In this document: one piece after another, positions 6,001 through 64,000 of the stretch | How the letters are laid out: each line of letters opens with the position of its first letter | Numbering within the stretch: the first letter of the stretch is position 1 | Virus record (IMG/VR): IMGVR_UViG_3300030107_002332 | Strand: one strand, 5' to 3' | Source of the DNA: a virus | DNA: 64,000 nucleotides | Program-made: the position numbers and the translations under genes | The notes under the pieces: generated by a model | Database searches by the model: none | What the model saw: only the letters and a program-made list of their open reading frames with translations | Told to the model about the DNA's origin: nothing

Positions 6001-7275
6001 GTTATCACGTAATTCTAAAGTCTGATATGAATTAGCAACAGTAGATCCAGATAGGTTTAAGAAACCATATACGTTACTAACTTTAGACCAATTACCCATT
6101 TCAAATGGGATAATAACGTTCTGTGCTGACTTTGTATCTCTTGGTTTTGCTAAGTCAACATAAGTTGGTGATAATGTTTTAACTCTATATCCTTTAACAT
6201 ATGCTGCACCTGCTCCAAATTCTACTGCATACTTAGTTTCCGAAGCTGTATCGCCCTGTGCTGTAGTACCACCAATATCATAAACACCATTGTTAAACCC
6301 ATCATCAAGGTTCTCTCTAAGGTTGATAGCAAAGTCTTTTACAACATAATCACCAGACTCTTCATAAGTTCTGATAGCAAGAGACTTTTCTAACTCATCA
6401 TATGCACTACGATCTAAAAGTTTCTCAACTTTACTTGCGTTAATTCTTAATAGCTCAATGAAGTTCTTATCAGCATCATCTGTAAGAAGTTTCTTAATAA
6501 GCTTGGTTGTTATTCTGAACCTGTGAGAACCAGGAGCAGCATAATTAGATGTTCCTGCAGCGTTATCATTGAGGCTAAGGTCATCTTCTGGGGTAATGAT
6601 GGATTCTTGTATGTCAAGTCCAACTCTATAGGAGGGGTTACTTCCATATTGATCAAGGAGAATATATTGATAAGGTACGTCTACAAAGAAACCTCTGATA
6701 TAGTATACACCAGTTTGCACGTATGCAACAGATCCAATTTGTAGAGCTGCGGTTGGAAGAAGTTGAGCAAATGGAGACCCAATTTCAATCAGTGTAGTAC
6801 CAAACGTAATGGCAGACGTGGTAACTAACTGTTCATTATTTGAAAATGTCTTTTGAGTATTTGCTGTACCACCAGACTCAGTATACTTAACATAAAGGGT
6901 AATATAACCTTTCTCTGAATCGGTAGATGAAATACTATATAATACTTTTGCTTTAACTCCTGAAGTCAAACCAGTAATAATTTTACCAGTTAACTGAGAA
7001 CGATACAATTCAATATCAGCACCCAAGAATGACTCTTGAAGCATGATACAATCAACGTTCAGGTCATATCCTATCTGACCAGGAATAACCATCGCACCAT
7101 CTTTAAATAAGTGCGAACCAATATTTTCAACCTGATTCTGTTGAATCGATTGTAGTGTTGTAAGTTCCCTTGCCTGTATCGGGAAGCCAGGTCTAAAAAG
7201 TACTCGATAAAAGTTCTTACTCTTATCAAAGTCGTCGTAATACGGGGTTACATTTAAGTTAGTATTTTGTGCCAT
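58..7275 (-). CDS. VrlC-like (DUF4815) large virion/baseplate-associated structural protein, 2405 aa
   Basis: N-terminus MAQNTNLNVTPYYDDFD..KNFYRVLFRPGFPIQARELTTLQS is typical of this family; WYDPLAQSF and LFKSQNASTW motifs; lies directly after gp8 as in T4-like cyanophages. Confidence 0.8.
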   Translation of the reverse strand: MAQNTNLNVTPYYDDFDKSKNFYRVLFRPGFPIQARELTTLQSIQQNQVENIGSHLFKDGAMVIPGQIGYDLNVDCIMLQESFLGADIELYRSQLTGKIITGLTSGVKAKVLYSISSTDSEKGYITLYVKYTESGGTANTQKTFSNNEQLVTTSAITFGTTLIEIGSPFAQLLPTAALQIGSVAYVQTGVYYIRGFFVDVPYQYILLDQYGSNPSYRVGLDIQESIITPEDDLSLNDNAAGTSNYAAPGSHRFRITTKLIKKLLTDDADKNFIELLRINASKVEKLLDRSAYDELEKSLAIRTYEESGDYVVKDFAINLRENLDDGFNNGVYDIGGTTAQGDTASETKYAVEFGAGAAYVKGYRVKTLSPTYVDLAKPRDTKSAQNVIIPFEMGNWSKVSNVYGFLNLSGSTVANSYQTLELRDNFSVTAGDAQGQLIGYARTAAFEHMADPDTTFGTADDQYKLNIFDVQMFTVMTLSSTETISQGSLLVGANTGARGYIVNATTNSTDLLLYQVEGTFEKGEMLTLDGQNLDTIANFHEYKYSDTRQFVAKDESTSATEFTADLILEDIIRLEGDTFTYDATGGSEKITGLNSNFALDLRPGDRIYFNATQYVDVDYVTISNLAGTGIPAIFNYLNQTVNVTPGAGAAAPSAGTYTTLVRYRGKLNDVQNADLLSEMPKKYIKSISDESSVVRRTFDAQTVASNSVSITLPANEQFESITDENYTFTVLAGTNSTHPVGDQILIDTTNSGNVGYTTFTSADRTTIQIVNLTNITSIKVTATISKNVTARKTKSGQQMVVLKVNKTTADLDKQNYGLTYSNLYGTRIQDRDLSLGLVDAYRLHAVYESNDNNDPVIPSVVLVEPTFFATGSIVTGKTSKARAKVVDFASGSLTLSLVYIEGSFVAGESITGVNSSGTAISAIINDSAGSIVAGSKVVTDNYFLEVGQTGFMYDISKIVRKKGVSTPIRKLKIVLDYYTHSATGDYFGGQSYLDTPYADIPFYQFKFLADYLDFRPGAKNLFSGTGTVASPGYVNCSTFDFKSRVFTTGGSPIATIFDIPKLNSSFRADFDWYLPRVDKCFITPDGEFQIIKGKSEEAPQEPDDLVDGMLLAVINHKPYGFDPELDAAIVRSDHKRYTMKDIGQLERRLDQVEYYTSLNMLETDTFNTKVLDSSGKDRLKNGFIVDDFSDHGKSATDHEDFAASVDFQEGECRPGHYTTNIPLQINTTLSTNYQQTGPIITLPYVEKKVIDQPYASRVENVNPFNVFTYIGRVTLLPSSDDWVDTERLPARVQQIEGDFEATASELNVDQNGFAPVQWRAWRTVWSADTTISGRTVHNRHWLEEDRGRSPHPQVWGGRGMRRINRVETIESNRIQTRSGIRTRVIPRIERTSMGDSVVSSTVIPWIRSRNLEVDIARLKPRTQFYTFFDGRKVDVYVSPKLIELIKDPTVDTRTNSTPFVVGETVTGLTSGLKFKVANPNDFYQFSPYDDSTLPSSYASTTEYLNIDTDALAKQAVGQYYGNMQVGEVLEGTSGAKAVVKDRRLISDRFGKMKASFFIPRPGVDTNPRWRTGTRTLRFTTSDVDSRVGGVVASSAEAEYESNGTLNRVRENILAVRNAEVVRDTVSETVTVRTTRTETRQIGWYDPLAQSFILDEKGGVFLTSVDVYFNTKDTNIPVSMQIRTMENGYPTKSILPFSDVTIEPTNIQISETGSVATKFTFQAPVYIPQSIEHCFVLLSDSNEYQVWISRMGELDITGDRTISDQPYAGVLFKSQNASTWTADQFEDLKFAINRADFTTTGTSTVVLNNAKLDIGNGGVLNLRNDAIETVVPSIDLLMNTALTYTVGSRVYQKTTLAEGTIRKITTGAGGAALLTVDDISGTFAQGSATGGVITNRLVSSKTLATMVVSGASGDFTVGETITGSTSAAPTAEVVTWVSGTNTLTLKYVSTNFTATSETITGGLSSVTATVASITYSGDATAGGTPTIQDAYPQSTPTFAAANRKIRISHSNHCMHSTSNNVTLSGVISEVSDTYLTAAISASDTSIAVNDASAFHKVINGVAIGSTNVGYIMIDNEIMSYSAISNDNKTITVHERGLNGTTGVSHVDESVVKCYNLDGIPLTEINKIHTAIQNPTLDSYELVTTSIGRLGIRAGGSNIFATQNIQYETLVPQIERMLLPQTEITARANVISGTSIGDGSSVTEASFANDGVFSDIILSEDNQFAAPALICSEINESSELSGAKSFRMDLQLKSLEPNISPVIDTDRLSAILVTNRINSPTATDSALKSVGDEHDAVYITRVANLANPSGSIKLMFAGYRPPNTTIKVLYRVRPVGSSSSIDTYGFSYFPTTGATIPATTDRKIYYDYEYEASGLNFDQYQIKILFVSSNQAYVPIIKDLRAIALAV

Positions 7276-8850: not shown

Positions 8851-11800
8851 TTACGAACGAACAGTTGTCTGATATTCAATTCGTTTGATTCTATATGATG
8901 CTCCAGCATTACCATTAATCTTTTCTCCACCCAAAACTGCTTGTGCTATAGCACCATTTGGAGTTGAAGCAAACTTACCATCAGAGATATTATTAGATGC
9001 ATCTGTGAAAAGAATGAATGGATGGGTCTTGTATGAGTTATCGATTGATTGCGTATACCCATACCCACCATTAATAATATTGATAGAAGCAACTTGGTCT
9101 GCTGCAGTTGTCATATTGACGGTTGCAGTTGCTTGTATATCTCCTAATGCACCACCCCAGTTAATAGTCTCACTATTTCTACTTTCGGTAGCAGGAGAAG
9201 TCGGACCCTGAATCTCTAATAATGGAGTAGCACTATAGTTCTGTCCAGCATCCTGAATAACAAAGTCAATGATTGATGAATCATGAGAGAATTCATAAAG
9301 ATAACCAGCAATACCAACATTAATATTGCCTGTATTATATGGAACAATATCCTTAAGTGTAAGAATACCATTTGAAGGATCCCATGATACACATGTTCCT
9401 CTAACTCCAGAAATAGCACCAGTTACTAGTTCATCAACACCGAAGTTCTGACCATTATTGTCTGTACTCAATTCAACATATATCTTAACAAGTGCTGTAT
9501 GGTCTACACCATCACTTAGACCACCTGCACCTGTAATAGTTGCATACTTAAATGGTATATCTGCGTCTTTAATATTGTCTCCAACTTGGAAGAGAGTAGT
9601 ATTTTGACCACCAAGGGTTTCTTCAATACCATATAATGATGTATGAATACCACCATCAAGACTAATTTGATTGAGGAAATCTGTACCTGTATTTACCAGA
9701 TCAGGAATACCATCTCCAACTGGTGGACCTGCAGGTATAAGATCTTGGAATGCTTTATCTTGTAAAGTTGAAATAGGAACTGTTAAAGTTGTAATTACAC
9801 TTCCAGTAGAATCAACAACTACGTGAGGATTAAATCCTGATGGAGCACTATCTGCAACACCAGCATCAAATTGTACAATAGCATCCTCAGTAGAAGGAAG
9901 ACCACCATCAATAAATGCTAATTCATCAATTTCAAATGTAACTAATAGTGCTCTTGAAACTGGATCCCAATCATATACTTTAGCAACTTTATTACTAGAG
10001 TTTTCAACCTTTCTAATAACTCTGTCACCAACATTAAACTTATAATTTGAACTACCATCTGCATTATTCTGTCCAGCATCAAGAACAATACGCTGATCAT
10101 AGTTAAAGTTTACACCTCTTGTTAAACCTGAGAACTTACCAGCAGATTTAGAAGTATAAGAAATAGTTTCTGTATCTACAATAATCTTACCTGAACCTGG
10201 ATATGCGTCTGTAGAATCAACAAACACATCTGAATCAGATGCACCAAGTTTTTTAACTAATCCAGTTAAGTAGATTGCAGAAGAGTTAAATGCCTGTCTT
10301 GCTCTTGACTTACGCTTAAGATTAACAAGTTTAGTGAATATTATATTTGGTGAAGATGTATATCCAGTACCAGGTTCAATAACATTAATACCAGTTATAG
10401 CACCTTGACTAATAGTTGCCTCTGCCTTAGCACCTAATCCTCCTCCACCAGTAATTAAAATATATGGTGCCTCTTGATAGTATTCACCAGAATTTACAAC
10501 ACTAATTGATGTAACCTTACCAAGTTTATCAATAGTAGCTGCACCTTCAGCACCTTGTCCACCACCACCTTCAAATATAAGAGTTGGTGGAGTTGCATAA
10601 TCTCTACCAGTATTGTTTAGTGATAAACCAGTAACTGTTTGTACAACTGGACTACCAGTTGCACCAGTTCCACCACCACCTAAAATTCTTGCAGTAGCAG
10701 CACCAAAATAATTATCACCCTTTTGGGTCATCTTAATATAAGAAAGTTGACCAGGATTATCTGTACTTAATACAATCTCACCCTCAGCACCTTCTGGGAA
10801 TACTGATGGCATTTGTGGTACTGAACTGCCTTCAAATATAGGAGCACCATAGAATTTTAAACCAATAGCATAAGGATATACAGGATTACCTGAACCATCC
10901 TCTGTCATAAAGTAAGCATAAGTTCCATTTGGATACTCAGGAGTTACAGCAAACTTACCATTATACTCATCAAGAGTACCAACACCAGAAGCCCAAATAT
11001 AATCTTGTGTTAAATCTCCAAGAATATAACCACCCTGAACAGTTCTTAATCCTAAATTAGATGTTGAATATCCAAAAACATATAGAGCAGGAGGAGCATC
11101 TACAGGAACTGTCCACCTCATCTCTCTGGTAGTTGCCAACTGGAAACCACTTATATAATTTGTATATGTTACTTCAGAACCATTAATATAATACTTAATT
11201 CCTTGACCTGTATAAAGATATGATGTATCTCCTAAATCGCTTGGATTACCAGTAGAGTGCCAACCATTTTCTGTAGTAGAGAGTAATAGATGGTTTACAC
11301 TTGGTTGATCATCATTACTTGAATCATTCTGTTGGAAGACATAAGTCTTTCCTCGTTTAAAATCTAAGAAGTTTGGTCTTGCACCATCAAATAAGAATTG
11401 TCCACCTGATACTGTAACAGCATAAGTGACTGTTGTTGCAGTAGTTACTTCAGGACGAGCACCTGGAAGTTCTGCAGTAGTTCTTAATCTATATCCAGAT
11501 ACCTCTCTAGCAACAGTACCAGAAGAATTATATCCCCAAGGTCCATAAATTGGATATCCATCATAGGACATACCCAATATCTTAGAGTGACCATCTACAT
11601 GCCTTCCATAATCAGGACCAGTAGCAAAGAAGTTTCTAACATAATAATCATTAGCTGGTGTATGAGACTCAACAGTAGGATCCAGAATCATATAACCTTC
11701 ATCACCTTCATGCCCAGACATATATCGATGATTTTTACAATAATAATAAATTTTATTAGTCTCATCCGCATTCATTAAGAATAGCGGTTGTAACTCAGTT

Positions 11801-13113
11801 TCATAATCTACAGCAGGTGCTGCACTTGAACCTGTACTATTGTAATATAATGCTCCATTATTCAATAAACCATCTTGTGTAGTACTGAATTGCATTGGAT
11901 GTCCATCAGTATGATGTGATCCAGGAGAGTTAGTAGGATCTGATTGATCCCATATAATTAAATAATTTCTTTGAACTTTAATATTTTCTGGAGAGAAATA
12001 ATATTGACCTGGAACAAATGCACCAAATTCTGCAGCATCAGCACCAAAATCAATATAAAATATTCCGTTAACAAAGTTATATGGAACAGCATTAACTGTA
12101 AATGAGAATCCTGTAGACCCTAAGAACTTATCATTTTCAGCAAAATCTCCACTTGTTTCTCTTAAATATATTCTTGTTACTTGATTTGTATTATCTCTTA
12201 CTACCTTAGCAATAGTACCCTGAGCATTACCACCAATTTCATCTACAACTCTTCCAACTTCTACATTACCTAAAGTCTCATCAACTTGATTAACTGTCAG
12301 CATTATATTATCAAATTCTACCTTAATCTTCCAAACAAATTGTTGTATATCACCCCATCCAAATACTCCATTCGTTAAAGCAAATTGATCAATAGTTTTA
12401 CTTGATTGGTAATATTGAATATTACTATCAGTAATGGTATCATAAGTATCTGTATTTTTTATATAATCATACTTAACAGTATCAATAGAAAATCCTACTG
12501 GAGCATTACTAATAGAACCCCATTCTGGAGTGTGTAGTAATCCACCATTTGCTAATACACCAGTTACCTTATTTGTCTGTTCTTCTCTTGCTGCAGGATT
12601 AGGTACGTCTTTACCACCCCTGTAAATAAATGTTTGATTGAAATTTCTATCAACTAAAGGACCACCACCAGGAACTCTTTCTGCTGCAATTGGAGTTGGT
12701 CTTGGATGATTATCCGATGTAATAGTAAGTCTGTCTGTCTTCTTATTATCACTATTAAGAGTAAAAACTCCAGCAGTAGGAGAGTTTGGATGAGTCTGCC
12801 AAATTCTATTAACATCAAAAGATGTTACAACATTAGGAGTTTCATCCTGAGGAACAATTTGTAATCTTAAAGGATCATATCCTCTACCTCGATTTAAAAC
12901 CCTAACATGAATAATCTGACCTGAGTCATCATCAATAATAGGATATAATAATGCTTCAACATCTGGTGTACCACATCCCTGTATAGTCAAACGAGGAGGA
13001 TCATCCGATGTATAAAGACTACCACCGTTAACTACTTTGACCGCACGAACTCCAAATATTTCATCAAAAATAGGTTCAATGACGGCACCAGAACCAGGAA
13101 CTGTTCTTGCCAT
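8851..13113 (-). CDS. virion structural protein with YHYH-like domain, two cupredoxin-like inserts and GxGY/GGGG beta repeats, 1420 aa
   Basis: HSKILGMSYDGYPIYGPWGY...GTLDEYNGKFAVTPEYPNGTYAYF (YHYH-type); GHPMQF...YYYCKNHRYM; repeated GxGY..P.+.+.GGGG.GA.A units. Confidence 0.72.
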   Translation of the reverse strand: MARTVPGSGAVIEPIFDEIFGVRAVKVVNGGSLYTSDDPPRLTIQGCGTPDVEALLYPIIDDDSGQIIHVRVLNRGRGYDPLRLQIVPQDETPNVVTSFDVNRIWQTHPNSPTAGVFTLNSDNKKTDRLTITSDNHPRPTPIAAERVPGGGPLVDRNFNQTFIYRGGKDVPNPAAREEQTNKVTGVLANGGLLHTPEWGSISNAPVGFSIDTVKYDYIKNTDTYDTITDSNIQYYQSSKTIDQFALTNGVFGWGDIQQFVWKIKVEFDNIMLTVNQVDETLGNVEVGRVVDEIGGNAQGTIAKVVRDNTNQVTRIYLRETSGDFAENDKFLGSTGFSFTVNAVPYNFVNGIFYIDFGADAAEFGAFVPGQYYFSPENIKVQRNYLIIWDQSDPTNSPGSHHTDGHPMQFSTTQDGLLNNGALYYNSTGSSAAPAVDYETELQPLFLMNADETNKIYYYCKNHRYMSGHEGDEGYMILDPTVESHTPANDYYVRNFFATGPDYGRHVDGHSKILGMSYDGYPIYGPWGYNSSGTVAREVSGYRLRTTAELPGARPEVTTATTVTYAVTVSGGQFLFDGARPNFLDFKRGKTYVFQQNDSSNDDQPSVNHLLLSTTENGWHSTGNPSDLGDTSYLYTGQGIKYYINGSEVTYTNYISGFQLATTREMRWTVPVDAPPALYVFGYSTSNLGLRTVQGGYILGDLTQDYIWASGVGTLDEYNGKFAVTPEYPNGTYAYFMTEDGSGNPVYPYAIGLKFYGAPIFEGSSVPQMPSVFPEGAEGEIVLSTDNPGQLSYIKMTQKGDNYFGAATARILGGGGTGATGSPVVQTVTGLSLNNTGRDYATPPTLIFEGGGGQGAEGAATIDKLGKVTSISVVNSGEYYQEAPYILITGGGGLGAKAEATISQGAITGINVIEPGTGYTSSPNIIFTKLVNLKRKSRARQAFNSSAIYLTGLVKKLGASDSDVFVDSTDAYPGSGKIIVDTETISYTSKSAGKFSGLTRGVNFNYDQRIVLDAGQNNADGSSNYKFNVGDRVIRKVENSSNKVAKVYDWDPVSRALLVTFEIDELAFIDGGLPSTEDAIVQFDAGVADSAPSGFNPHVVVDSTGSVITTLTVPISTLQDKAFQDLIPAGPPVGDGIPDLVNTGTDFLNQISLDGGIHTSLYGIEETLGGQNTTLFQVGDNIKDADIPFKYATITGAGGLSDGVDHTALVKIYVELSTDNNGQNFGVDELVTGAISGVRGTCVSWDPSNGILTLKDIVPYNTGNINVGIAGYLYEFSHDSSIIDFVIQDAGQNYSATPLLEIQGPTSPATESRNSETINWGGALGDIQATATVNMTTAADQVASINIINGGYGYTQSIDNSYKTHPFILFTDASNNISDGKFASTPNGAIAQAVLGGEKINGNAGASYRIKRIEYQTTVRS

Positions 13114-14362: not shown

Positions 14363-14370
14363 TATTTATA
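14363..14370 (-). promoter_or_regulatory. T4-type late promoter TATAAATA
   Basis: exact consensus (plus strand tatttata) overlapping the giant gene's stop, about 20 nt upstream of the 14342 start. Confidence 0.75.
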
Positions 14371-53266: not shown

Positions 53267-54517
53267 TTACGAGACATAAGATTTAGGGGGAATTCCTTCT
53301 ATAAAAATATATGATACCACAGATTGCAGTCTTTTGGCAATTCTCTCACCATATTTACCTGCTATTGGTACACATATTTGACCAAAAGATTTGGTGTATA
53401 ATTGATACTTACCTGCTGGTATTTTACCCTCTTCCATTAACTTTCTATCATCATTATGTACTCTAATTACTCTACCTATTGTCTGTGCCATTTCAATAGT
53501 AGGTAGATTTCTAAGCATAACTGAATGAGTTAAACCTGGAACATTTATACCCTCTGATAGTATAGAATAGTGGAAGATTATAAACTTCTTATTGTTATCT
53601 TTGCCCCATTTTGTAAGTGTTTCAAAGAACTCTTCCCTACCAACTTTCTTACCATTAATGATAGCACCATGCTTAGATGTTATGTGCATAATGTTATATT
53701 GCTCTGAATATAACCATGACCTAATATCAGTATGTGTGAGCATATTCCATAGAATTCTTGTTGTTGGTGCTGATACAAGTATCTTAGGTGCTTGACATTT
53801 AATGCTATTAATTATATCCTTTAAGTTATCACAATCTACCTCATGTGCGTTCTGTTTAGTTCTCTCTCTATCTGTAGGGAATGGTATTACTTTAGGTGGT
53901 AATATTGTACCACTGTTTATCAACTCCCATGCTTCAGTTTGCTCTAATACATTACCATATACTTGAGCATTATTCATACCACGTTCTGCACTAACATTAT
54001 TCTTAGATCTTGCAACTCTTGGAGTTGCAGTAAAGAAATAACGTGATATACCAGATGCAGCAACCCTCTTTATCTGTTGAAAGAAGTTCTTACCAGTACC
54101 ATTATGTGCTTCATCAAAATACATTCTATCAATATTAATATCACTATCTAACACTCTGTGTAGAGAATGATAGGTAGTAAATATTAACTTATGACCAATA
54201 GTATTATTGTGATATACACTTAACTCATGTGAATTAGTGGTACTAAAGTGATGAGTTTCACCACTATGTACATGTAATATCTTAACATTTTTAACAGTAG
54301 ATTCAAACTCACTAGATAACTGATTAGCAAGTAAGATACGAGGTGCTACTATAACAAATGTCTTGTAATTGCCTTCGGTTTGTGATACTATTCTATCACA
54401 ATCAGCAATCATAATGAATGTTTTGCCACCACCAGTAGGTATAATAATCTGACCAGACTTCTCTGTGGTCATCTTATCGTATGCCCTTAACTGGTGTGGT
54501 CTCAATGTGTCTTTCAA
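53267..54517 (-). CDS. superfamily 2 (ResIII-like DEAH) helicase
   Basis: IIPTGGGKT (Walker A), FDEAH, FFTATP, ILSEGINVPGL, QTIGRVIR. Confidence 0.9.
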   Translation of the reverse strand: MKDTLRPHQLRAYDKMTTEKSGQIIIPTGGGKTFIMIADCDRIVSQTEGNYKTFVIVAPRILLANQLSSEFESTVKNVKILHVHSGETHHFSTTNSHELSVYHNNTIGHKLIFTTYHSLHRVLDSDINIDRMYFDEAHNGTGKNFFQQIKRVAASGISRYFFTATPRVARSKNNVSAERGMNNAQVYGNVLEQTEAWELINSGTILPPKVIPFPTDRERTKQNAHEVDCDNLKDIINSIKCQAPKILVSAPTTRILWNMLTHTDIRSWLYSEQYNIMHITSKHGAIINGKKVGREEFFETLTKWGKDNNKKFIIFHYSILSEGINVPGLTHSVMLRNLPTIEMAQTIGRVIRVHNDDRKLMEEGKIPAGKYQLYTKSFGQICVPIAGKYGERIAKRLQSVVSYIFIEGIPPKSYVS

Positions 54518-57286: not shown

Positions 57287-57315
57287 AGTATAACACATTA
57301 TTTTTGTATTGTCTA
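57287..57315 (-). promoter_or_regulatory. host-type sigma70 promoter TAGACA-N17-TATACT with extended -10
   Basis: plus strand tgtcta 57310-57315 and agtata 57287-57292; TG at the extended -10 position. Confidence 0.7.
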
Positions 57316-57834
57316 TCCTATGTGACACTTTGGATCGTGCACATAGTTGAAGTTGATAACCATCCTAAACGGTTGATCGGTACATGTTGTGCCTGTATGC
57401 TTCATTCTATTATCAAATACTACAAATCTATTCTGTACTGACTCAACTATTGTACCATCCTCAAATTTAGTATATCCATTATTAGTATTCAAATAGAATA
57501 CTGCTGTCTTAATATAATCTAAGTGTACACCATCCTGTATATCATTATGAAATCCATGCTCTATTATATTCTCCGTAGGCATGTTAAGATTTGCTTTAAT
57601 TTTAATTAGTGCTACTGGTTGTATCTTCTGAAAGAATGGAAACAATAGTTCTAGGGTATCCATTGATAAGAAATGTCTCTCGTAAAATACATGTGATAAT
57701 TGTCTATTAGTAAGATAATTGTCCTCAGTATCATCAAGAACCTTAGTCATATTCCATTTAAACTCATGGTGCTTCATGTATGAGAATAGTTTCTGGAATA
57801 TCTCATCAGGTAAGAAGTTATCGTATATCTTCAT
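57313..57834 (-). CDS. 2OG-Fe(II) oxygenase; start re-called at MKIYDNF
   Basis: HGFHND (HxD), TAVFYLNTNNGYT, KHTGTT (distal His), RMVINFNY; ATGA overlap with the upstream gene. Confidence 0.82.
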   Translation of the reverse strand: MKIYDNFLPDEIFQKLFSYMKHHEFKWNMTKVLDDTEDNYLTNRQLSHVFYERHFLSMDTLELLFPFFQKIQPVALIKIKANLNMPTENIIEHGFHNDIQDGVHLDYIKTAVFYLNTNNGYTKFEDGTIVESVQNRFVVFDNRMKHTGTTCTDQPFRMVINFNYVHDPKCHIG

Positions 57835-59522
57835 TTCTTCAGTAATAATATATAAAGACCATTCCACCATGAAGAATCATCTTCTGGTTTGTTAGTTAAT
57901 AGTTTACGTTCAAAGATTACATTAAGTTTCATAATACGAATGAACTCATCTACAGACTCAATAACATTAGGCATATTAGCATCATCAATGATAAGAATAA
58001 ACTCATCTTTACAGAACTGGTAAACATGTTTAAGATTAATATATTGTGCTTGAGGATCGTGATCTGCATCATAGAATATAACATTAACTTCCTCTGGTAA
58101 TGCTATGTTCTGTATATCCTCCTCAATTAATTTATAATCATATCTCTTATCAGGATACCAAGGTGGTTCCAATAATACTGCTTTAGGGTTCTGATACCCT
58201 TTAAAGTTTAAATCATCCCTGTTAGGATATGTTGGTTGTTTATAGTTATCAACTGCATATCCCTTAACATTATTATTCTGTAATGCTGAATAGAATGTAC
58301 CACCAGCATAACATCCAAGTTCTAAGTATACTGTATCAGATAATGAACAGATATTATTTAAGAAGTGTTTAGTTATATTTGATGTAAGTGATTCTATTGC
58401 AACTCCTGTATAGTTACTATCTAATCTCTCTGCCTTGTCTATTGACTCTAATATATGAGGTATTTTAGGATTAACTTCTATATCACCTTTACCATGTTTG
58501 TATACTGTATCACAGTAATTACACTTCCAACAGTTAAACTTACATGTCTTTATCTTATCTCTCCATACATCAATAGGTCTCTCTTTAATATCAACAACAT
58601 CAATATATTCTCTGAAATCAGAGAACAAATACTCTTCATTATTTGCCCATCTATCAATAATATCCATAGTCTCTTTAAGACGTAATGGTGCTTCTCTTCC
58701 ATGCATTTTAAATACATCAATTACATCTAAGAACTCAATCCAATCTTCTTTCCAAGGTGGTAGATTTGCTGCCTTAAGTGATGCTGCCCCATCAAGTGCA
58801 TCCCATTTACTACAACTAACTCTGCTAATCCTACTGTTAAAGTATTGAGGATCATCAGCATCTCTAGTATTATTATAGTGATAATGTTCTGGCATGATAG
58901 GACAATTACCCCAACAACCCTCATTAGTTAATAATGATAGTTTAATGGGATATCCCTGTTCAGCACAGTATTCTTTCGCCTCTTTGATTTCATTTAATCT
59001 ATCCCTATCTCTCATCAAGTCTCTATCTAGGTTTATATAATGGAAACCTGCTCTTGCAAGTTCAACTATCTCATTAGGTCTAGTAACTTCTCTTAGTATA
59101 GTATTCTTAATGTATAATTCAGGATATTGTTTCTGTATCTCTCCAGTTAATACCCATGATGTATGAGGTAGAGTAACAATCTTAATGCCAGCATTATATA
59201 ATGATTCAAAGTTATGAATCCATGTTTCTAAATTCTTTTGATCTGGTCTAACATATAGATTATTAAATGTTGCTGATAATGGTATACCTGATTCATTAGA
59301 TAACCATAATGCCATCTCAATGACTTGGAACTCCATGTCTTGAGTATAAAATACGTCACCCATTGCATCCTGTGTAAAGGGTGGCATCCTTGTAGTAAAA
59401 TATAAATCATATATTAGATCCTTATTTCTTATTAAGAACTGTAGATACTCATTCTTAATAAAATCTGGATCTAATTTAGGATTAATAGGAACTGAAAATA
59501 TTTTATTCTTCAACTGCATCAC
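57831..59522 (-). CDS. U32-peptidase-like Fe-S enzyme fused to a class I SAM methyltransferase (Methyltransf_24-like), 563 aa
   Basis: N-part: YINLDRD, LLTNEGCWGNCP, SCSKW, VFKMHGRE, CKFNCWKCNYC. C-part: YLELGCYAGGT, IFYDADH, ILIIDD. Confidence 0.72.
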   Translation of the reverse strand: MMQLKNKIFSVPINPKLDPDFIKNEYLQFLIRNKDLIYDLYFTTRMPPFTQDAMGDVFYTQDMEFQVIEMALWLSNESGIPLSATFNNLYVRPDQKNLETWIHNFESLYNAGIKIVTLPHTSWVLTGEIQKQYPELYIKNTILREVTRPNEIVELARAGFHYINLDRDLMRDRDRLNEIKEAKEYCAEQGYPIKLSLLTNEGCWGNCPIMPEHYHYNNTRDADDPQYFNSRISRVSCSKWDALDGAASLKAANLPPWKEDWIEFLDVIDVFKMHGREAPLRLKETMDIIDRWANNEEYLFSDFREYIDVVDIKERPIDVWRDKIKTCKFNCWKCNYCDTVYKHGKGDIEVNPKIPHILESIDKAERLDSNYTGVAIESLTSNITKHFLNNICSLSDTVYLELGCYAGGTFYSALQNNNVKGYAVDNYKQPTYPNRDDLNFKGYQNPKAVLLEPPWYPDKRYDYKLIEEDIQNIALPEEVNVIFYDADHDPQAQYINLKHVYQFCKDEFILIIDDANMPNVIESVDEFIRIMKLNVIFERKLLTNKPEDDSSWWNGLYILLLKK

Positions 59523-60261
59523 TAATCATCTTGCGTGATGGCATACCCTCTTCCAAGAAACTAATCTCTTGTTCTGCTTTTAGTCTCATTCTTTCCATAC
59601 CTGATTTAATACTACCAGCATACTTTAATGCTATATCAATAGTTTTAGATTGATCTTCTTCAGGCATCATCAAGATAGAATCTATATTACCAACATTAAT
59701 AGTACCATAACCAATAAGATCAACAGCAGATTGCTTTGCCATTCTTGCAACCCAATACTTATGTTCTTCTTCCTTATCTAATACCATATATGATGCAACT
59801 TCCTGTTCATCATCACATTGTTCTTTAATCCAATCTAAAAAGTATCTCAATTCCATTTCAGATTGAGTCAATCGTTTAACATATTCCTTTCTATCAATTT
59901 GCTTATCGTTTAACTCAACATATAATAATCTTGCATCAAAATCAGTTTTACCTGGTATATCTCCCTCTTTAAATCCTAACTTCTCTAACTCATGTACTTT
60001 CTTATCTATCTCAATATCTGCACGTTGTATCTCAATGTGCATCTTATTGATACCATGATTTCTTGTTGCTACTTCTAATAATGCTTGTCTTACTGCTCTA
60101 TACTTAGTAGCATGTGATCCTGCTACAAAGTTAGTACATTGAAATTCTGTTTGAGGAAATGGAGTTACATTGGCGTTCTTTCTAATGAACGTATCAAATT
60201 CATCAAAGGAAACTTGGGGTGACCCGTCCTGCATTGTATGTTCGGTATCCATCTGAGTCAT
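59503..60261 (-). CDS. coiled-coil protein, putative fibre-associated partner
   Basis: heptad-rich centre; YWVARMAKQSAVDLIGYG.I..GNIDSI motif; exact start uncertain (60234-60261). Confidence 0.65.
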   Translation of the reverse strand: MTQMDTEHTMQDGSPQVSFDEFDTFIRKNANVTPFPQTEFQCTNFVAGSHATKYRAVRQALLEVATRNHGINKMHIEIQRADIEIDKKVHELEKLGFKEGDIPGKTDFDARLLYVELNDKQIDRKEYVKRLTQSEMELRYFLDWIKEQCDDEQEVASYMVLDKEEEHKYWVARMAKQSAVDLIGYGTINVGNIDSILMMPEEDQSKTIDIALKYAGSIKSGMERMRLKAEQEISFLEEGMPSRKMISDAVEE

Positions 60262-60766
60262 ATTTAGATAATGCTAATGCTTGAGTTCTTGGTAACTCAT
60301 CACCAAGATAGTCCTCATATATTATATTGATATCTTCCATTGTACTGCAATTATCAATAGATGTCAATAAGGCACTGTTATATGTAGCATGTGAATCACC
60401 AAGTTTACTGATACCATACTCAACTAATTTCTTAGCGACTTTCTTCATTAATGATACACATGTTGCTCTATCTTCATCACTAATTTCTGTTTTAATCTTC
60501 TGTGAATTACCATTACCATCATCAGTCCACTCACTTGTATGTGTCCTTACTTCTGCCCATAATTGTCCACCTTTAATTGCTTCATTCTCAGATATCTTAT
60601 CTAATGTCCAACCATTCATATACTCATCTATAGTTTCTTGTGTTACACCACAGATTGCATATTTAATTTTATTATTAACATACATCAATCTACTACCTCT
60701 TACTTCAACAGGTAGATCTTCAACATCATGTATGAAGAATATTAAATTGGGATCGTATAATGCCAT
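60203..60766 (-). CDS. hypothetical protein (possible fibre assembly factor)
   Basis: ORF track; TAATG overlap with the upstream propeller gene. Confidence 0.7.
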   Translation of the reverse strand: MALYDPNLIFFIHDVEDLPVEVRGSRLMYVNNKIKYAICGVTQETIDEYMNGWTLDKISENEAIKGGQLWAEVRTHTSEWTDDGNGNSQKIKTEISDEDRATCVSLMKKVAKKLVEYGISKLGDSHATYNSALLTSIDNCSTMEDINIIYEDYLGDELPRTQALALSKYDSDGYRTYNAGRVTPSFL

Positions 60767-61773
60767 TAGTATGAGGGGGGTGTAATTCCGTAAGAAGAGT
60801 TATTAAATGAGAAAGCAGAAGCATTGCCAGCACTGGACATTCCATTGTGTCCTTTAGGTTCCATACCTCCACCACCTGAACTATATGTATCACTTGTAGT
60901 AGAGAACTTGTATGAATTATTATTCTGTGAACCGTTATAATGTCCTAAACAATATCCTTTAAAGTTACCTTGCTGATAATTCTCTTCACCTGAGTTCTGT
61001 ACGTTGAATGTAGATATATTAGCACCAGTATCATCATTACATTTTGCTAAACCCGTAACACAGTTACCACCCGTCTTCATATAGAAATGACCCATCCAAC
61101 TACCACATGCTTTACCCCATCCGTTAGTTCCTGGTGAATTACTCCATGTTGACCATGACTCATTTGCCCATGTCATATATTGAGCAGTACCACCTGTCTT
61201 CATGTATCCTCTTAATCTTCCTTGTGTCCCTGCTGTATAGTCACCACCACTACCAAATCCATTAGTAGTAGCATTAGAATCATTCTTCATATTAGTTCTA
61301 TCAGTGGTGCTATTACCACCTCCACTAATATAGATATGAGCACCCATGTAATGATAATCAATCATACATCCCATGTCATTCCTACTAACATTCATTCCAG
61401 ATTGATTACCTCTGTTTGATTCATTGCTCATTTGCATTGACCAAACTCTGTTAGACCATCCAGAGAATGAATTATCAGTACCATAGCAATACATGTGAAG
61501 ATCACTAAATGCACCATCAATATATGATCCAGCATCATTCATCTTGTCACCAAGATTAGTTGATGTATCATTACTATGTTGTGTCCTATTTACATTTCTC
61601 CAAGGAGCAGCATTTTTATATCCTCCAGCAACGAACCCATGCGTACATATCCTTGATCTCTCCCAAGGTGTAGCAGTAGGTCCATGTTCACTACCTTGTG
61701 ATCTACTATGCTTTGCTCTACCAGAGGTTACAAATGGTCCTTGTGCAGTAGCACTTGCCGTTAGTCCTGACAT
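60766..61773 (-). CDS. Gly/Asn/Ser-rich Kelch-like beta-propeller protein, 335 aa
   Basis: ~40-45-aa periodic blades: GFVAGGY, MYCYG, IYISGGG, GYMKTGG, FYMKTGG, GYCLGHY. Confidence 0.6.
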   Translation of the reverse strand: MSGLTASATAQGPFVTSGRAKHSRSQGSEHGPTATPWERSRICTHGFVAGGYKNAAPWRNVNRTQHSNDTSTNLGDKMNDAGSYIDGAFSDLHMYCYGTDNSFSGWSNRVWSMQMSNESNRGNQSGMNVSRNDMGCMIDYHYMGAHIYISGGGNSTTDRTNMKNDSNATTNGFGSGGDYTAGTQGRLRGYMKTGGTAQYMTWANESWSTWSNSPGTNGWGKACGSWMGHFYMKTGGNCVTGLAKCNDDTGANISTFNVQNSGEENYQQGNFKGYCLGHYNGSQNNNSYKFSTTSDTYSSGGGGMEPKGHNGMSSAGNASAFSFNNSSYGITPPSY

Positions 61774-61786
61774 TCAAGTTCCCTCC

Positions 61787-62323
61787 TTATGTGTAGAAGT
61801 TCTGGTTAGCATAAATTCGGAAGTCATTATTACCGATCTTCATTATAGTATATGTGTATACATCAACAGAGTTAGTATGTCCTGAGTTAGGAGTACCAAA
61901 TCCACCTAACCATTTTGGTGTCTTACCACTACCATCTATTTGCCATCCATTATTATAATATGCTGTACTACCTTGCTGAACATATAGTACAAATGTAAGA
62001 GACTGATCTGTACTCATTTCACTATTCAATGTAACTGAAGAACTACCTCTAAAGTTCACTGTCCAGTTACCACCAGCATTACCAGTATAATGATATATTT
62101 GTGCAGTCTGAAAATCTAAATTAATAGTTCCTGATAAAGCACTACTTGAGTTTACTATTGTCTCTTTACCTCCACCACCTCCTGCTGGTGCTGCCCACGC
62201 TAAAACTCCAGCACCATTTGTGGTAAGCACATCATTGGCATTACCTTGTACATTTGGATAGGTATTAGTTCCTGCAATGAGACTGGTGCTTACTGTTGCA
62301 GTACCTACTGTAAGTGCTGACAT
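61787..62323 (-). CDS. short tail-fibre-like protein, 178 aa
   Basis: NDVLTTNGAGVLAW fibre motif and C-terminal KWLGG..P....NSVDVYTYTIMK domain; late promoter upstream. Confidence 0.7.
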   Translation of the reverse strand: MSALTVGTATVSTSLIAGTNTYPNVQGNANDVLTTNGAGVLAWAAPAGGGGGKETIVNSSSALSGTINLDFQTAQIYHYTGNAGGNWTVNFRGSSSVTLNSEMSTDQSLTFVLYVQQGSTAYYNNGWQIDGSGKTPKWLGGFGTPNSGHTNSVDVYTYTIMKIGNNDFRIYANQNFYT

Positions 62324-62347: not shown

Positions 62348-62355
62348 TATTTATA
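62348..62355 (-). promoter_or_regulatory. T4-type late promoter TATAAATA
   Basis: exact consensus overlapping the permease stop, about 25 nt upstream of the 62323 start. Confidence 0.75.
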
Positions 62356-63376
62356 TAATCAATGTGAAGAACCCATACGTTATTAAACATGCACACAATC
62401 CTCCTAATACTTTATAATATTTCTTGATAGGTGTACCAAAATACTGTTGACCAATCATTAAACACTTATGTGCTGGTGATAATAGATAACCAGAATACTC
62501 TGTAGTTAAGAACCATACAAGATATTGTGGTCCAAATATAGCAACTAACGCTGAAGTCATACCAGCATACTTACCACTACTACCCATAATATATGCTGCT
62601 ACTGCTGCTACAATACTAACAGGTATAATCATAGTAGTATCTGCACTCTTAAGATACTCCATCACTGGTGCATGTATCTGTTTAACTACACCACCTAATG
62701 CCAATACTACTGTTGCAATGATAGCAAACTTACCATCCAAATATTTACCCCACTTCCAATCTTTACATATAATACTATAATAACATGCCATAGCAGCAAA
62801 CCAAGGGAAGAAGAATATAGCACCTGCTTTACCTACACATAATAAGAACCATAGTGTAGCAATAAATGGTGCCCATCCTCTTAATGCTCTCTTCCAATTA
62901 AAATCACTAATATTACTCATGTCAGGAACAACACTTTGAGGATCTACCTTAGTAAAAATATACCACCATGTATATGCTAAACATATACACAATGGTACAA
63001 TAGTATATCCTAAAAATGTAGTATAACTTATACCCATGACTGCCATAGGTAGTGCCACAGTCTTTTCAAGTGGACTCCACCAATAGTAATGATGAGTAGA
63101 AAGATAATCAATTATACCAAACTCACTTCTCTTTCTCTTATTTTCTGGTGCTATAGCATCTAATAATGGTGCTGATAGTGCTACTCTACCAGGTATAGGT
63201 AGGACTCCACCAAATATAGATGTAATGATTATCATCACACGATTATCTTTTACATATCTCTTTGCTAATGAATATACATCATCCAATACATGATATTGAC
63301 GAATAAATCCACCCAATATCATAATACCGAAAATGTAACCCATGTAGAGTTCATTCTTAAGGATCGCTGATAACAT
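62351..63376 (-). CDS. multi-pass membrane permease, DUF401-like / IT superfamily, 341 aa
   Basis: many hydrophobic segments; GGVLPIPGRVALSAPLL and GYLLSPAHKCLMIGQQYFG recall DUF401 G.LPMPGGAL.SAP and G.LLSP.H.CL...YF motifs. Confidence 0.68.
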   Translation of the reverse strand: MLSAILKNELYMGYIFGIMILGGFIRQYHVLDDVYSLAKRYVKDNRVMIIITSIFGGVLPIPGRVALSAPLLDAIAPENKRKRSEFGIIDYLSTHHYYWWSPLEKTVALPMAVMGISYTTFLGYTIVPLCICLAYTWWYIFTKVDPQSVVPDMSNISDFNWKRALRGWAPFIATLWFLLCVGKAGAIFFFPWFAAMACYYSIICKDWKWGKYLDGKFAIIATVVLALGGVVKQIHAPVMEYLKSADTTMIIPVSIVAAVAAYIMGSSGKYAGMTSALVAIFGPQYLVWFLTTEYSGYLLSPAHKCLMIGQQYFGTPIKKYYKVLGGLCACLITYGFFTLII

Positions 63377-63875
63377 AGTTTAAATTTAATACCATTCTAT
63401 ATGTCTGATCGCTGCATGATACAGACGTATGCTTTATATAGTTTGGAAATGTGACCAATCTATTTGCAACACTGTGTATTTTAACACCATCCTCAAATTC
63501 TGTCCACCCATTATTAGTATTCATATAAAATATGGACACCATAACTGATGGATTTGTAGTGTTTGTTATGTCAACATGTAGATTATGTTTTAATTGAGTA
63601 TCATGTTGTAGAGTAATATTTCCTTTAATTCTCAACACAGCAAGAGGATCTATCTTCTTGACTAAAGGAAATAATATATTACACCCATCCATTGCCATAT
63701 TATTTTCATAAAAGTAATGAACGAATTGCATATTACGCAACTTATTACCTTCATGCTCTTCTGCATCAATACTTGATGGATACCAAGGGAATGATGGCAT
63801 GAGTAACTCATTAGATAATGTATTAAATGTACCAGTATCTAAAAAGTTATCAGTAATTTTATAATAGTCTTGCAC
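63357..63875 (-). CDS. 2OG-Fe(II) oxygenase, paralogue of 57313-57834 (GTG start)
   Basis: HNLHVD, SIFYMNTNNGWTEFEDG, KHTSVSC, RMVLNLNY. Confidence 0.82.
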   Translation of the reverse strand: MQDYYKITDNFLDTGTFNTLSNELLMPSFPWYPSSIDAEEHEGNKLRNMQFVHYFYENNMAMDGCNILFPLVKKIDPLAVLRIKGNITLQHDTQLKHNLHVDITNTTNPSVMVSIFYMNTNNGWTEFEDGVKIHSVANRLVTFPNYIKHTSVSCSDQTYRMVLNLNYVISDP

Positions 63876-64000
63876 CTGCTCCCTCTTGAGTCTTATCTAC
63901 AACAACTATATACATACCATTCCACCAATCATTAGCATCTTCTAATTCTTTTGTTAATAACTTCCTTTCAAATACTACAGTCTTATCTTTTAAAAACTTC
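63859..64000 (-). CDS. C-terminal fragment of a methyltransferase paralogous to the C-terminus of 57831-59522 (gene starts beyond the window)
   Basis: own translation KFLKDKTVVFERKLLTKELEDANDWWNGMYIVVVDK versus VIFERKLLTNKPEDDSSWWNGLYILLLKK. Confidence 0.8.
   Translation of the reverse strand, partial: KFLKDKTVVFERKLLTKELEDANDWWNGMYIVVVDKTQEGAGARLL

Follow-up and report, generated by a model that had tools for sequence, protein, structure and literature searches.

A virus-borne gene in IMG/VR record IMGVR_UViG_3300030107_002332 encodes a 563-residue protein in which a TIM barrel, a very divergent relative of the U32 superfamily outside Pfam Peptidase_U32, is followed by a class I, cation-dependent-type O-methyltransferase. 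The DNA analyzed, hereafter the window, is 64,000 nucleotides long, and the gene lies on its minus strand at positions 57831 to 59522. We consider it quite possible, if somewhat short of probable, that the product belongs to a conserved late-gene module of phages as a tailoring enzyme with two domains, which would hydroxylate a module-encoded target with its predicted Fe-S domain and then O-methylate it.

U32 proteins are a recently recognized class of O2-independent hydroxylases. To our knowledge, no in vitro reconstitution of U32 chemistry, with prephenate as the oxygen donor, has been achieved, substrates are known for a minority of the subfamilies, and the family has been described as occurring almost exclusively in bacteria and archaea. 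In cyanophages of the ocean and in further large phages, the fusion gene defines a large and abundant virus-borne sister family of U32, whose different cysteine architecture may put both clusters in one chain. As methylation would be a built-in reporter step, the fusion could offer a tractable way to study U32 chemistry in a single chain. The family also marks a conserved and wholly unstudied module beside tail-fiber genes. When phages infect phototrophs of global importance, this module may serve to modify virion proteins, nucleic acids, or a metabolite.

A phage gene family and its late cassette

The open reading frame starts with GTG, followed by ATG as codon 2 (59517 to 59519). Its family is large and phage-borne (T4-like cyanophage GC354; PHROG 1458) and is annotated merely as "hypothetical." In a large protein database, 1734 clusters are homologous, and homologs were found in 126 phage records. 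Canonical U32 genes are scarce among phage records (45 of 50,697), and the majority of these resemble host fragments. Chance is ruled out for the fusion frame and its motifs, and the observation is confirmed as real: NLDRD, EGCWGNCP...C, FKMHGRE, and a terminal cysteine motif, all listed in the first-pass annotation of this DNA, are present in the translation. psbA was not found in five large, related viral contigs, none of which is complete.

Among 80 related viral loci, the U32-like and methyltransferase domains are fused in 40 and encoded by separate genes in 37; the split loci, with adjacent overlapping genes, form one clade. The occurrence of both forms argues for functional coupling and supports the two domains being partners. 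Cellular relatives are found in strictly anaerobic Dehalococcoidia, where they adjoin radical SAM and PqqD genes. A RiPP-type precursor beside these relatives was rejected, as no conserved small precursor-like frame adjoins them. They also lie near genes for reductive dehalogenases, the substrates of which are haloaromatics.

The surrounding module has a conserved order of propeller/fiber-like genes, two unknown genes, and then a 2OG oxygenase, a radical SAM enzyme, or a DUF401 permease. In the window, the cassette, like the fusion gene, is on the minus strand and begins with c48 (61787 to 62323; 178 residues, PHROG 5906), a small protein that is the first gene of cassette B. The next gene, c0 (60766 to 61773; 335 residues, PHROG 1417), encodes a propeller/fiber-like protein seen at 70 loci in one to three tandem copies, and the protein atlas gave for it a Kelch-type lead only. 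Two unknown proteins follow, c3 (60203 to 60766; 187 residues, PHROG 1604-like) and c2 (59503 to 60261; 252 residues, PHROG 1409). The latter is a near-obligate upstream neighbor: it is found at most about five genes away from the U32-like gene in 35 of 37 split and 35 of 40 fused loci, and also in Ralstonia phage RP31. Overall, c0, c3, and c2 are neighbors in 30 to 36 of 37 to 40 loci. PDB profile searches with c0, c2, and c3 found nothing, a protein atlas search with c2 gave no match, and NCBIfam had no informative match to the fusion protein or to c2, c3, or c7. We rejected the possibility that an AroQ chorismate mutase supplying prephenate is encoded by c2 or c3, as the hhalign probability was below 1%.

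The T4 late-promoter consensus TATAAATA lies 25 nt upstream of the cassette (62348 to 62355, minus strand); it occurs only twice in the whole window, each time in a gap between genes and on the coding strand. This agrees with the late phage operon proposed earlier. The window also has a DUF401/TIGR00529 permease gene (62351 to 63376, minus strand; 341 residues), of a family that accompanies the U32-like gene in 27 of 37 split-type loci, in 9 of 40 fused-type loci, and in RP31. At the other end, a 2OG-Fe(II) oxygenase gene (57313 to 57870, minus strand; 185 residues; Pfam and PHROG matches) overlaps the fusion gene at its 3' end, and such a gene is immediately downstream in 22 of the 40 fused-type loci. 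A second 2OG-Fe(II) oxygenase (63357 to 63875, minus strand; PHROG match) belongs to an upstream copy of the cassette. The HxD...H triad is invariant in both, and the product of 55654 to 56295 matches PF13759 (E = 2.9e-12), so that the statement that O2-dependent oxygenases adjoin the gene stands. A second U32-like/methyltransferase paralog runs off the window; its C-terminal 46 residues (63859 to 64000, minus strand) end in FERKLLT..ED..WWNG.Y, as the fusion protein does.

Folds and relatives of the two domains

With the full-length model, Foldseek gave only PRMT5 and pyruvate kinase, two-domain look-alikes with an rmsd of about 24, and the domains were therefore searched one by one. The N-terminal (beta/alpha)8 barrel (residues about 4 to 295; 58638 to 59513, minus strand) is modeled confidently as a TIM barrel, with a pLDDT of 91.1 in the AlphaFold2 model of this domain alone. 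Its top structural match is 5d88, the U32 protein Mk0906 and the sole solved member of that family (Z = 16.7, rmsd 3.2, 227 of 247 residues aligned), compared with a Z of 12.3 for the runner-up barrel. The same entry was the top Foldseek match (E = 5.8e-7) and gave a Z of 16.4 against the full-length model.

In sequence, kinship of this half to TrhP and RlhA appears weak but specific. A search of the six-frame translated Escherichia coli K-12 chromosome with the family profile matched trhP (E = 1.8e-4), rlhA (E = 0.18), and nothing else, and hhalign of the family against four E. coli U32 proteins gave an E value of 1.5e-4 over 112 columns, with a probability of only 51%. PF01136 did not match the fusion protein at E ≤ 0.01, scored just 1 of 42 homologs (E = 0.033), and in the reverse search found nothing in five related phage records at E ≤ 10. 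The cellular-clade profile found no U32 protein in E. coli, its single match (E = 0.08) falling in an unrelated gene, on a short segment rich in cysteine, and PDB sequence searches with the fusion protein and two family profiles gave no meaningful match. The earlier description of this half as U32-type thus stood as regards the barrel closest to 5d88 and the weak kinship to TrhP and RlhA, but not as regards PF01136 or the cysteine pattern.

The C-terminal domain (residues about 366 to 563; 57834 to 58427, minus strand) is a class I SAM-dependent O-methyltransferase-type domain by fold and motifs. Many O-methyltransferase structures (VIA) matched residues 362 to 563 with Z = 14 to 16 and rmsd 2.5 to 3.5, the top four with rmsd 2.6 to 3.5 over 162 to 181 aligned residues; these Z-scores do not tell TrmR apart from O-methyltransferases acting on sugars or catechol. 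Its motifs are YLELGCYAGGT (399 to 409), AVDNY (423 to 427), FYDADH (483 to 488), and DDANM (513 to 517). In 14 diverse C-terminal domains, Y399, G403, G407, and T409 of motif I (YLExGxxxGxT) are invariant and E401 nearly so; D425, D485 of FYD, and D513, D514, and N516 of DDAN are also invariant. PF13578 scored 20.5 bits on the fusion protein (E = 9e-4) against a cutoff of 26.3 bits; it exceeded the threshold on the split homolog of locus L008 (28.5 bits), and the assignment is precomputed for many family members. The top PDB sequence match of the domain profile, a marginal one, was Bacillus subtilis TrmR (YrrM; 5zw3, E = 0.0027). The alignment places FYD on FID and DD on the DN metal pair of TrmR, and the TrmR residues aligned with D485 and D513/D514/N516 are, we presume, metal ligands. 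The second solved TrmR, 8k1f, was missed by the same PDB search, and the profile had zero matches in E. coli. The O-methyltransferase-like character noted in the first reading is thus borne out by fold, invariant motifs, and the TrmR match.

Both halves therefore point to the xo5U pathway, with TrhP and then RlhA as the best E. coli matches of the N-terminal profile and TrmR as the best PDB match of the C-terminal one, and the analogy to TrhP and TrmR drawn in the annotation holds on each. The genes for TrhP and TrmR share an operon in B. subtilis (yrrM-yrrN-yrrO), and fusions of a hydroxylase with TrmR are known (TrhO-TrmR) (PMC6599085). The same chemistry might accordingly be directed at a pyrimidine of a nucleic acid, with the phage protein equivalent to TrhP plus TrmR. 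Its product would be 5-methoxyuridine or 5-methoxycytidine if the substrate were tRNA or rRNA, and a 5-methoxy pyrimidine if it were phage DNA. We regard this as somewhat unlikely. No tRNA gene is present in the window, the gene is always amid fiber/propeller-like and unknown late genes and not nucleotide-metabolism genes, and a late promoter motif heads the cassette; moreover, an RNA-binding extension like the C-terminal domain of TrhP is absent, and both sequence matches are marginal. Isoelectric points were dropped as a pointer to a nucleic-acid substrate, being uninformative (family median, 5.1; TrhP, 5.8; RlhA, 6.7).

Cysteine motifs and proposed chemistry

The only invariant columns in 42 homologs (22 to 46% identity) are seven cysteines, arranged as C203-X3-C207-X29-C237 (CX3CX29C) and C327-X3-C331-X2-C334-X2-C337 (CX3CX2CX2C). 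The first three form a barrel triad (58803 to 58925, minus strand) within NEGCWGNCP (200 to 208) and SC (236 to 237), with E201 and H213 nearly invariant. The other four, in CKFNCWKCNYC (327 to 337; 58512 to 58544, minus strand), have a pLDDT of 91 to 95 in the domain model and presumably form a second metal or Fe-S site. NLDRD (164 to 168; 59019 to 59033, minus strand), with D166 and R167 nearly invariant, is aligned by hhalign with the VLPRxL strand of the E. coli U32 proteins. FKMHGRE (271 to 277; 58692 to 58712, minus strand), with K272, G275, and R276 nearly invariant, appears to be the counterpart, on a late barrel strand, of the U32 KIEGR, on which the extended alignment places KMHGR in a region of low confidence. 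The conserved four-cysteine motif of U32 proteins is CX6CX15CX3/4C (PMC6747719). It is absent from the fusion family; the cysteine pattern had been taken for U32-type and is in fact noncanonical, the terminal CX3CX2CX2C being foreign to U32.

With cysteines unlike those of U32 proteins, the barrel might be an Fe-S enzyme of another chemistry, for example noncanonical radical-SAM-type or redox via CX3CX2C, with the methyltransferase acting on a preexisting hydroxyl, such as that of a sugar, or on another atom. CX3CX2C is the spacing of radical SAM enzymes, a true radical SAM enzyme is paired with the gene in split-type loci, some loci adjoin glycosyltransferase, carbamoyltransferase, and sugar epimerase genes, and sugar O-methyltransferases match the C-terminal domain structurally as well as TrmR does. 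The motif, however, is placed after the barrel (residues 327 to 334) and not after strand 1, and, as all four of its cysteines are invariant, no iron site is left open. Pfam gave no radical SAM match (PF04055) and NCBIfam only a 16-bit chance-level match to QueE, whereas U32 proteins are the best matches in both fold and sequence. We consider such a chemistry distinctly unlikely.

As a U32 hydroxylase relative is joined here to an O-methyltransferase, it is plausible, by analogy, that one protein adds a hydroxyl and then methylates it. The barrel probably carries two Fe-S or metal sites. C203/C207/C237 would hold one at the barrel mouth and CX3CX2CX2C the other, which may be equivalent to the second of the two clusters in UbiU-UbiV. 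On the model of TrhP, RlhA, and UbiU/V, the barrel would hydroxylate an sp2 carbon without O2, possibly with prephenate as the oxygen donor, and the C-terminal domain, as a cation-dependent COMT/TrmR-type methyltransferase, would convert the new hydroxyl to a methoxy group with SAM. The annotation had called the characterized U32 proteins established hydroxylases; this was overstated, as direct in vitro hydroxylase activity was known for none of them as of 2024 (PMC10990095).

The target is most likely a product of the same module, either the propeller/fiber-like protein itself or a group that it carries, as the synteny survives very deep divergence, although synteny assigns targets weakly in densely packed phage genomes. 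A more specific form of this proposal is virion tailoring, in which the U32-superfamily Fe-S enzyme would O2-independently hydroxylate aromatics or an attached group of a propeller protein at the tail-fiber tip, the fused methyltransferase would cap the product as a methoxy group, and phages of oxygenic hosts would have swapped the radical SAM partner for a 2OG oxygenase. In this detail the proposal is unlikely, but if true it would make this the first U32 enzyme to act on a protein and would add a new modification of phage receptor-binding proteins.

The fiber-like genes would be mere neighbors if the module instead made or modified a small diffusible molecule, quinone-like or aromatic, with the DUF401 permease importing the substrate or exporting the product. 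That permease adjoins the U32-like gene in very distant phages, UbiU/V plus UbiG are a precedent (PMC6747719), and the cellular relatives lie near genes of reductive dehalogenases, which act on haloaromatics; but the low frequency of DUF401 in fused-type loci (9 of 40) and the absence of other conserved biosynthetic genes and of a lipid-binding partner like UbiT make this highly unlikely. A peptidase or collagenase, for which nothing speaks but the historical name of U32 and, near the RP31 homolog, a gene with collagen repeats, is hardly credible, given that characterized U32 proteins serve hydroxylation pathways (PMC5727448, PMC6599085, PMC6747719) and that seven invariant cysteines and a fused methyltransferase are ill-suited to a protease.

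Relation to known U32 systems

Under the preferred reading of a hydroxylating and methylating tailoring enzyme, the protein can be compared with four systems. Mk0906 of Methanopyrus kandleri is the closest structural match of the N-terminal domain, but the identity is only 11%, and Mk0906 is a bare barrel without the C-terminal cysteine motif or a methyltransferase. RlhA (YdcP), the 23S rRNA ho5C2501 synthase and an Fe-dependent U32 protein (PMC5727448), is the sole other E. coli match of the family profile besides TrhP, and a very weak one; unlike the phage protein, it has 653 residues and the canonical U32 motif and lacks a fused methyltransferase.

TrhP (YegQ; YrrN/YrrO) and TrmR (YrrM), which convert U34 via ho5U34 to mo5U34, likewise pair a U32-type domain with a COMT-like SAM O-methyltransferase. 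The phage version differs in being a single chain or overlapping genes amid fiber-like late genes, and it has no PF01136 match, no TrhP C-terminal domain, another cysteine pattern, and the extra four-cysteine motif.

UbiU-UbiV and UbiG, of the O2-independent ubiquinone hydroxylation pathway, combine hydroxylation with subsequent O-methylation, as we propose for the phage protein. Prephenate is the oxygen donor of UbiU/V (PMC10990095), and prephenate-type chemistry has been proposed for the whole U32 family (PMC6747719, PMC10990095). UbiU/V have the lipid-binding partner UbiT, of which the phage protein has no counterpart. Two Fe-S clusters per functional unit would be common to both systems, those of the phage protein being putative; however, UbiU-UbiV is a heterodimer with one cluster per subunit (CX6CX16CX38C or CXnCX12CX3C), whereas in the phage protein a single chain would carry both.

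Domains and motifs of the fusion protein

The minus-strand reading frame at 57831-59522 encodes 563 aa and opens with GTG, with ATG as the next codon. All motifs quoted in the first-pass annotation were found in its translation, where NLDRD lies at residues 164-168, NEGCWGNCP at 200-208, SC at 236-237, FKMHGRE at 271-277, and CKFNCWKCNYC at 327-337, with the class I methyltransferase motifs YLELGCYAGGT, AVDNY, FYDADH, and DDANM C-terminal to them. The upstream neighbor (59503-60261) shares about 17-20 nt with this frame, and the downstream 2-oxoglutarate (2OG) oxygenase gene (57313-57870) overlaps it by 40 nt; because of these overlaps, the three genes are probably translationally coupled.

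In the N-terminal domain, Pfam Peptidase_U32 did not match the fusion protein, scored in only 1 of 42 homologues (E 0.033), and found nothing in five related phage records. The PDB likewise gave no match when queried with the fusion sequence or with family profiles. An AF2 model of residues 1-360, computed from an alignment of 42 diverse homologues, is a (beta/alpha)8 barrel (pLDDT 91.1, pTM 0.90). Among 48,161 representative PDB chains, its top structural match is the solved U32 protein Mk0906 (5d88; Z 16.7, rmsd 3.2, 227/247 residues aligned), followed among barrels by MTHFR (Z 12.3, rmsd 5.1). Foldseek also placed 5d88 first (E 5.8e-7, rmsd 4.0), with lower-ranked hits at rmsd 7-8 or more, and the full-length model agrees (5d88 at Z 16.4). 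When the 42-sequence profile was run against a six-frame translation of the entire Escherichia coli K-12 chromosome (E<=10), the only matches were trhP (E 1.8e-4) and rlhA (E 0.18), both within U32 genes. Alignment by hhalign with the four E. coli U32 paralogues (E 1.5e-4, probability 51%, 112 columns) covers barrel strands 3-6 and sets NLDRDL opposite VLPRxL; when extended, it sets FKMHGR opposite the U32 KIEGR motif. The earlier assignment to U32 stands as to the fold, closest to 5d88, and has weak but specific backing in the trhP and rlhA matches, but it does not hold as to the Pfam model and the cysteine motif. We read the domain as a genuine but very distant member of the U32 superfamily, beyond the Pfam family boundary.

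Across the 42 homologues (22-46% identity), C203, C207, C237, C327, C331, C334, and C337 are the sole invariant columns. The canonical U32 pattern is CX6CX15CX3/4C, with CX6CX16CX38C in UbiU and CXnCX12CX3C in UbiV, each of which binds one [4Fe-4S] cluster (PMC6747719). The phage family differs in having a barrel triad and a separate four-cysteine motif, from which we would naturally infer a single chain with two putative metal or Fe-S sites, recalling the UbiU-UbiV heterodimer with its two clusters.

Residues from about 362 to 563 structurally resemble many class I methyltransferases, O-methyltransferases foremost, with Z-scores (8c9v, 16.0; 5x7f, 15.8; 6g7d, 15.6; the TrmR structures 5zw3 and 8k1f, 14.7 and 14.3) that are unable to tell the subfamilies apart. 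For Pfam Methyltransf_24, the window protein falls under the threshold and one split homologue over it, and the assignment is precomputed for many relatives. In 14 diverse C-terminal domains, the motif I glycines, D425, F-Y-D485, D513-D514-x-N516, and WNG are invariant and E401 is nearly so. Run against PDB sequences, a profile built from these 14 domains gave a single significant match, Bacillus subtilis YrrM/TrmR (5zw3; E 0.0027), in which FID aligns with FYD and DN with DD. Kinship to TrmR is suggestive rather than firm, since every other PDB match has E>=0.5 and the profile missed the second solved TrmR.

Fused, split, and cellular forms

The comparison covered the window itself, two isolate phages, and 80 related loci from viruses. 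The two domains are in one gene in 40 loci and in separate genes in 37, the latter encoding 341-359 aa and then 188-232 aa, with gene pairs that abut or share up to about 47 nt. Each split gene matches its own domain profile (E 1e-35 to 1e-141). On a quick N-domain tree, the split forms make up one clade (SH-aLRT 96), which also holds Ralstonia phage RP31 and another solo form, and the fused forms fall outside it. That both forms occur argues for the two domains being functional partners, and no other new evidence backs the idea of two coupled steps as strongly.

The family is widespread in viruses. PHROG 1458 matches the fusion protein end to end (E 3.8e-213) and PHROG 36869 matches the N-domain only. 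The architecture of the fusion protein occurs in 1734 clusters of a large protein database. By tblastn, 126 phage records carry a homologue at about 50% identity, from Synechococcus and Prochlorococcus myoviruses and Ralstonia jumbo phages, and every copy is annotated "hypothetical." The P-HM2 homologue belongs to T4-like gene cluster 354, within a GC351-354 run that comes after a giant structural gene. Few phage records (45/50,697) have a canonical U32 gene, and most of these genes resemble host fragments; compared with them, the virus-borne family is abundant. Full-text searches of the literature on U32 with cyanophage or RiPP found no paper describing the fusion family.

A deep-branching sister clade, whose proteins are about 410 aa long and lack the methyltransferase, is found in cellular genomes, with three copies in the complete chromosome of Dehalogenimonas (CP139473.1), an organohalide respirer, and further members in Dehalococcoidales, Planctomycetota, and other groups. 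The Dehalococcoidia copies adjoin rdhA/rdhB reductive dehalogenase genes and radical SAM proteins of two kinds, one B12-binding and equipped with a PqqD domain, the other a homologue of the phage radical SAM enzyme. That strict anaerobes carry the U32-like gene is consistent with O2-independent chemistry, and the PqqD domain suggests that the substrates may be peptides. A conserved small open reading frame was looked for near the cellular relatives, and none was found. Three near-identical contigs from Pelagibacterales, Nitrososphaerales, and Chloroflexota bins (L097, L106, and L107) carry T4 gp14 and gp15, the neck and tail-sheath-stabilizer genes, and are mis-binned T4-like phage contigs rather than cellular; in them, the U32-like gene sits with glycosyltransferases, a carbamoyltransferase, and a 2OG oxygenase.

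The conserved module

Clustering of all neighboring reading frames gave a module order of c0, c3/c2, the U32-like gene, whether or not it has the methyltransferase, and then either a 2OG oxygenase or the uncharacterized gene c7 and a DUF401 permease. Cluster c0 (PHROG 1417) is propeller/fibre-like and occurs in one to three tandem copies; c2 (PHROG 1409) and c3 vary in relative order. Cluster c2 lies within five genes of the U32-like gene in 35 of 37 split and 35 of 40 fused loci, and in RP31 it directly precedes that gene, with DUF401 directly after. In all 37 split-type loci, a radical SAM gene (PF04055, E 3.7e-9) is directly upstream and the 2OG oxygenase is absent from the neighboring genes; in the 40 fused-type loci, which are those of cyanophages, the radical SAM gene is absent from the neighborhood and the oxygenase is directly downstream in 22. 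The split arrangement is seen, for example, at L008:5997-6998, among related loci L007-L043, L056, L057, L060, and L065. This contrast may reflect an O2-sensitive enzyme swapped for an O2-dependent one.

The adjoining oxygenases noted from the sequence were borne out: the gene overlapping the 3' end encodes a 2OG-Fe(II) oxygenase, and the HxD...H triad is invariant in the enzymes of fused-type loci. The window has two such PHROG 274 members, at 57313-57870 and 63357-63875, both on the minus strand. PHROG 274 is labeled "DNA endonuclease V," which looks like a propagated mis-annotation given the actual oxygenase family. A DUF401/TIGR00529 permease of the ion-transporter superfamily lies at 62351-63376 (minus strand) and at L002:6031-7071 in a related locus; this phage permease adjoins the U32-like gene in phages whose hosts are as far apart as cyanobacteria and Ralstonia. 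A second paralogue is represented at 63859-64000 (minus strand) by its last 46 codons, the gene continuing past the window end, and the related contig L045 carries both cassette copies.

A late phage operon had been proposed. The T4 late-promoter consensus TATAAATA occurs twice in the 64-kb window against about 10 copies expected by chance, at 62348-62355 and 14363-14370, both in gene gaps on the coding (minus) strand. One copy precedes the first gene of the cassette by 25 nt, which fits late transcription. Downstream on the minus strand are giant reading frames of 7938, 2405, and 1420 aa (14366-38182, 58-7275, and 8851-13113), which presumably encode fibre or other structural proteins; at 7938 aa, the longest is exceptional for a phage gene. 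A 416-aa SF2 helicase with ResIII/DEAD and Helicase_C domains (53267-54517, minus strand) separates the cassette from the early-gene region.

Chemistry, target, and known systems

By analogy, the best-supported chemistry is that the barrel domain would first carry out an Fe-S-dependent, O2-independent hydroxylation, which would be followed by SAM-dependent O-methylation. The pairing of TrhP with TrmR in Bacillus, mentioned in the first-pass annotation, is found in the literature: TrhP1/TrhP2 and TrmR are encoded together in a single B. subtilis operon, and TrhO also occurs fused to TrmR (PMC6599085). The UbiU/V step, with prephenate as oxygen donor, likewise precedes an O-methylation (PMC10990095). 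To call U32 proteins "established" hydroxylases was too strong, since as of 2024 in vitro hydroxylation had been shown for none of them (PMC10990095).

The evidence on the target is split. Deep fibre/propeller synteny, the late promoter motif, and the radical SAM/PqqD neighbors point to a protein or virion-attached group, while the homology of each half favors the xo5U pathway and thus a candidate nucleic-acid target. The permease and sugar-enzyme neighbors make a small molecule or glycan conceivable too. A target encoded in the module has a modest lead over the others.

Since it fails both the Pfam family model and the cysteine motif, the phage protein is best described as a new, divergent variant of the U32 superfamily that carries an extra cysteine cluster and has an O-methyltransferase fused or adjacent to it. 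By analogy with known systems, it would resemble a fused version of the TrhP and TrmR pair or of UbiU/V and UbiG.
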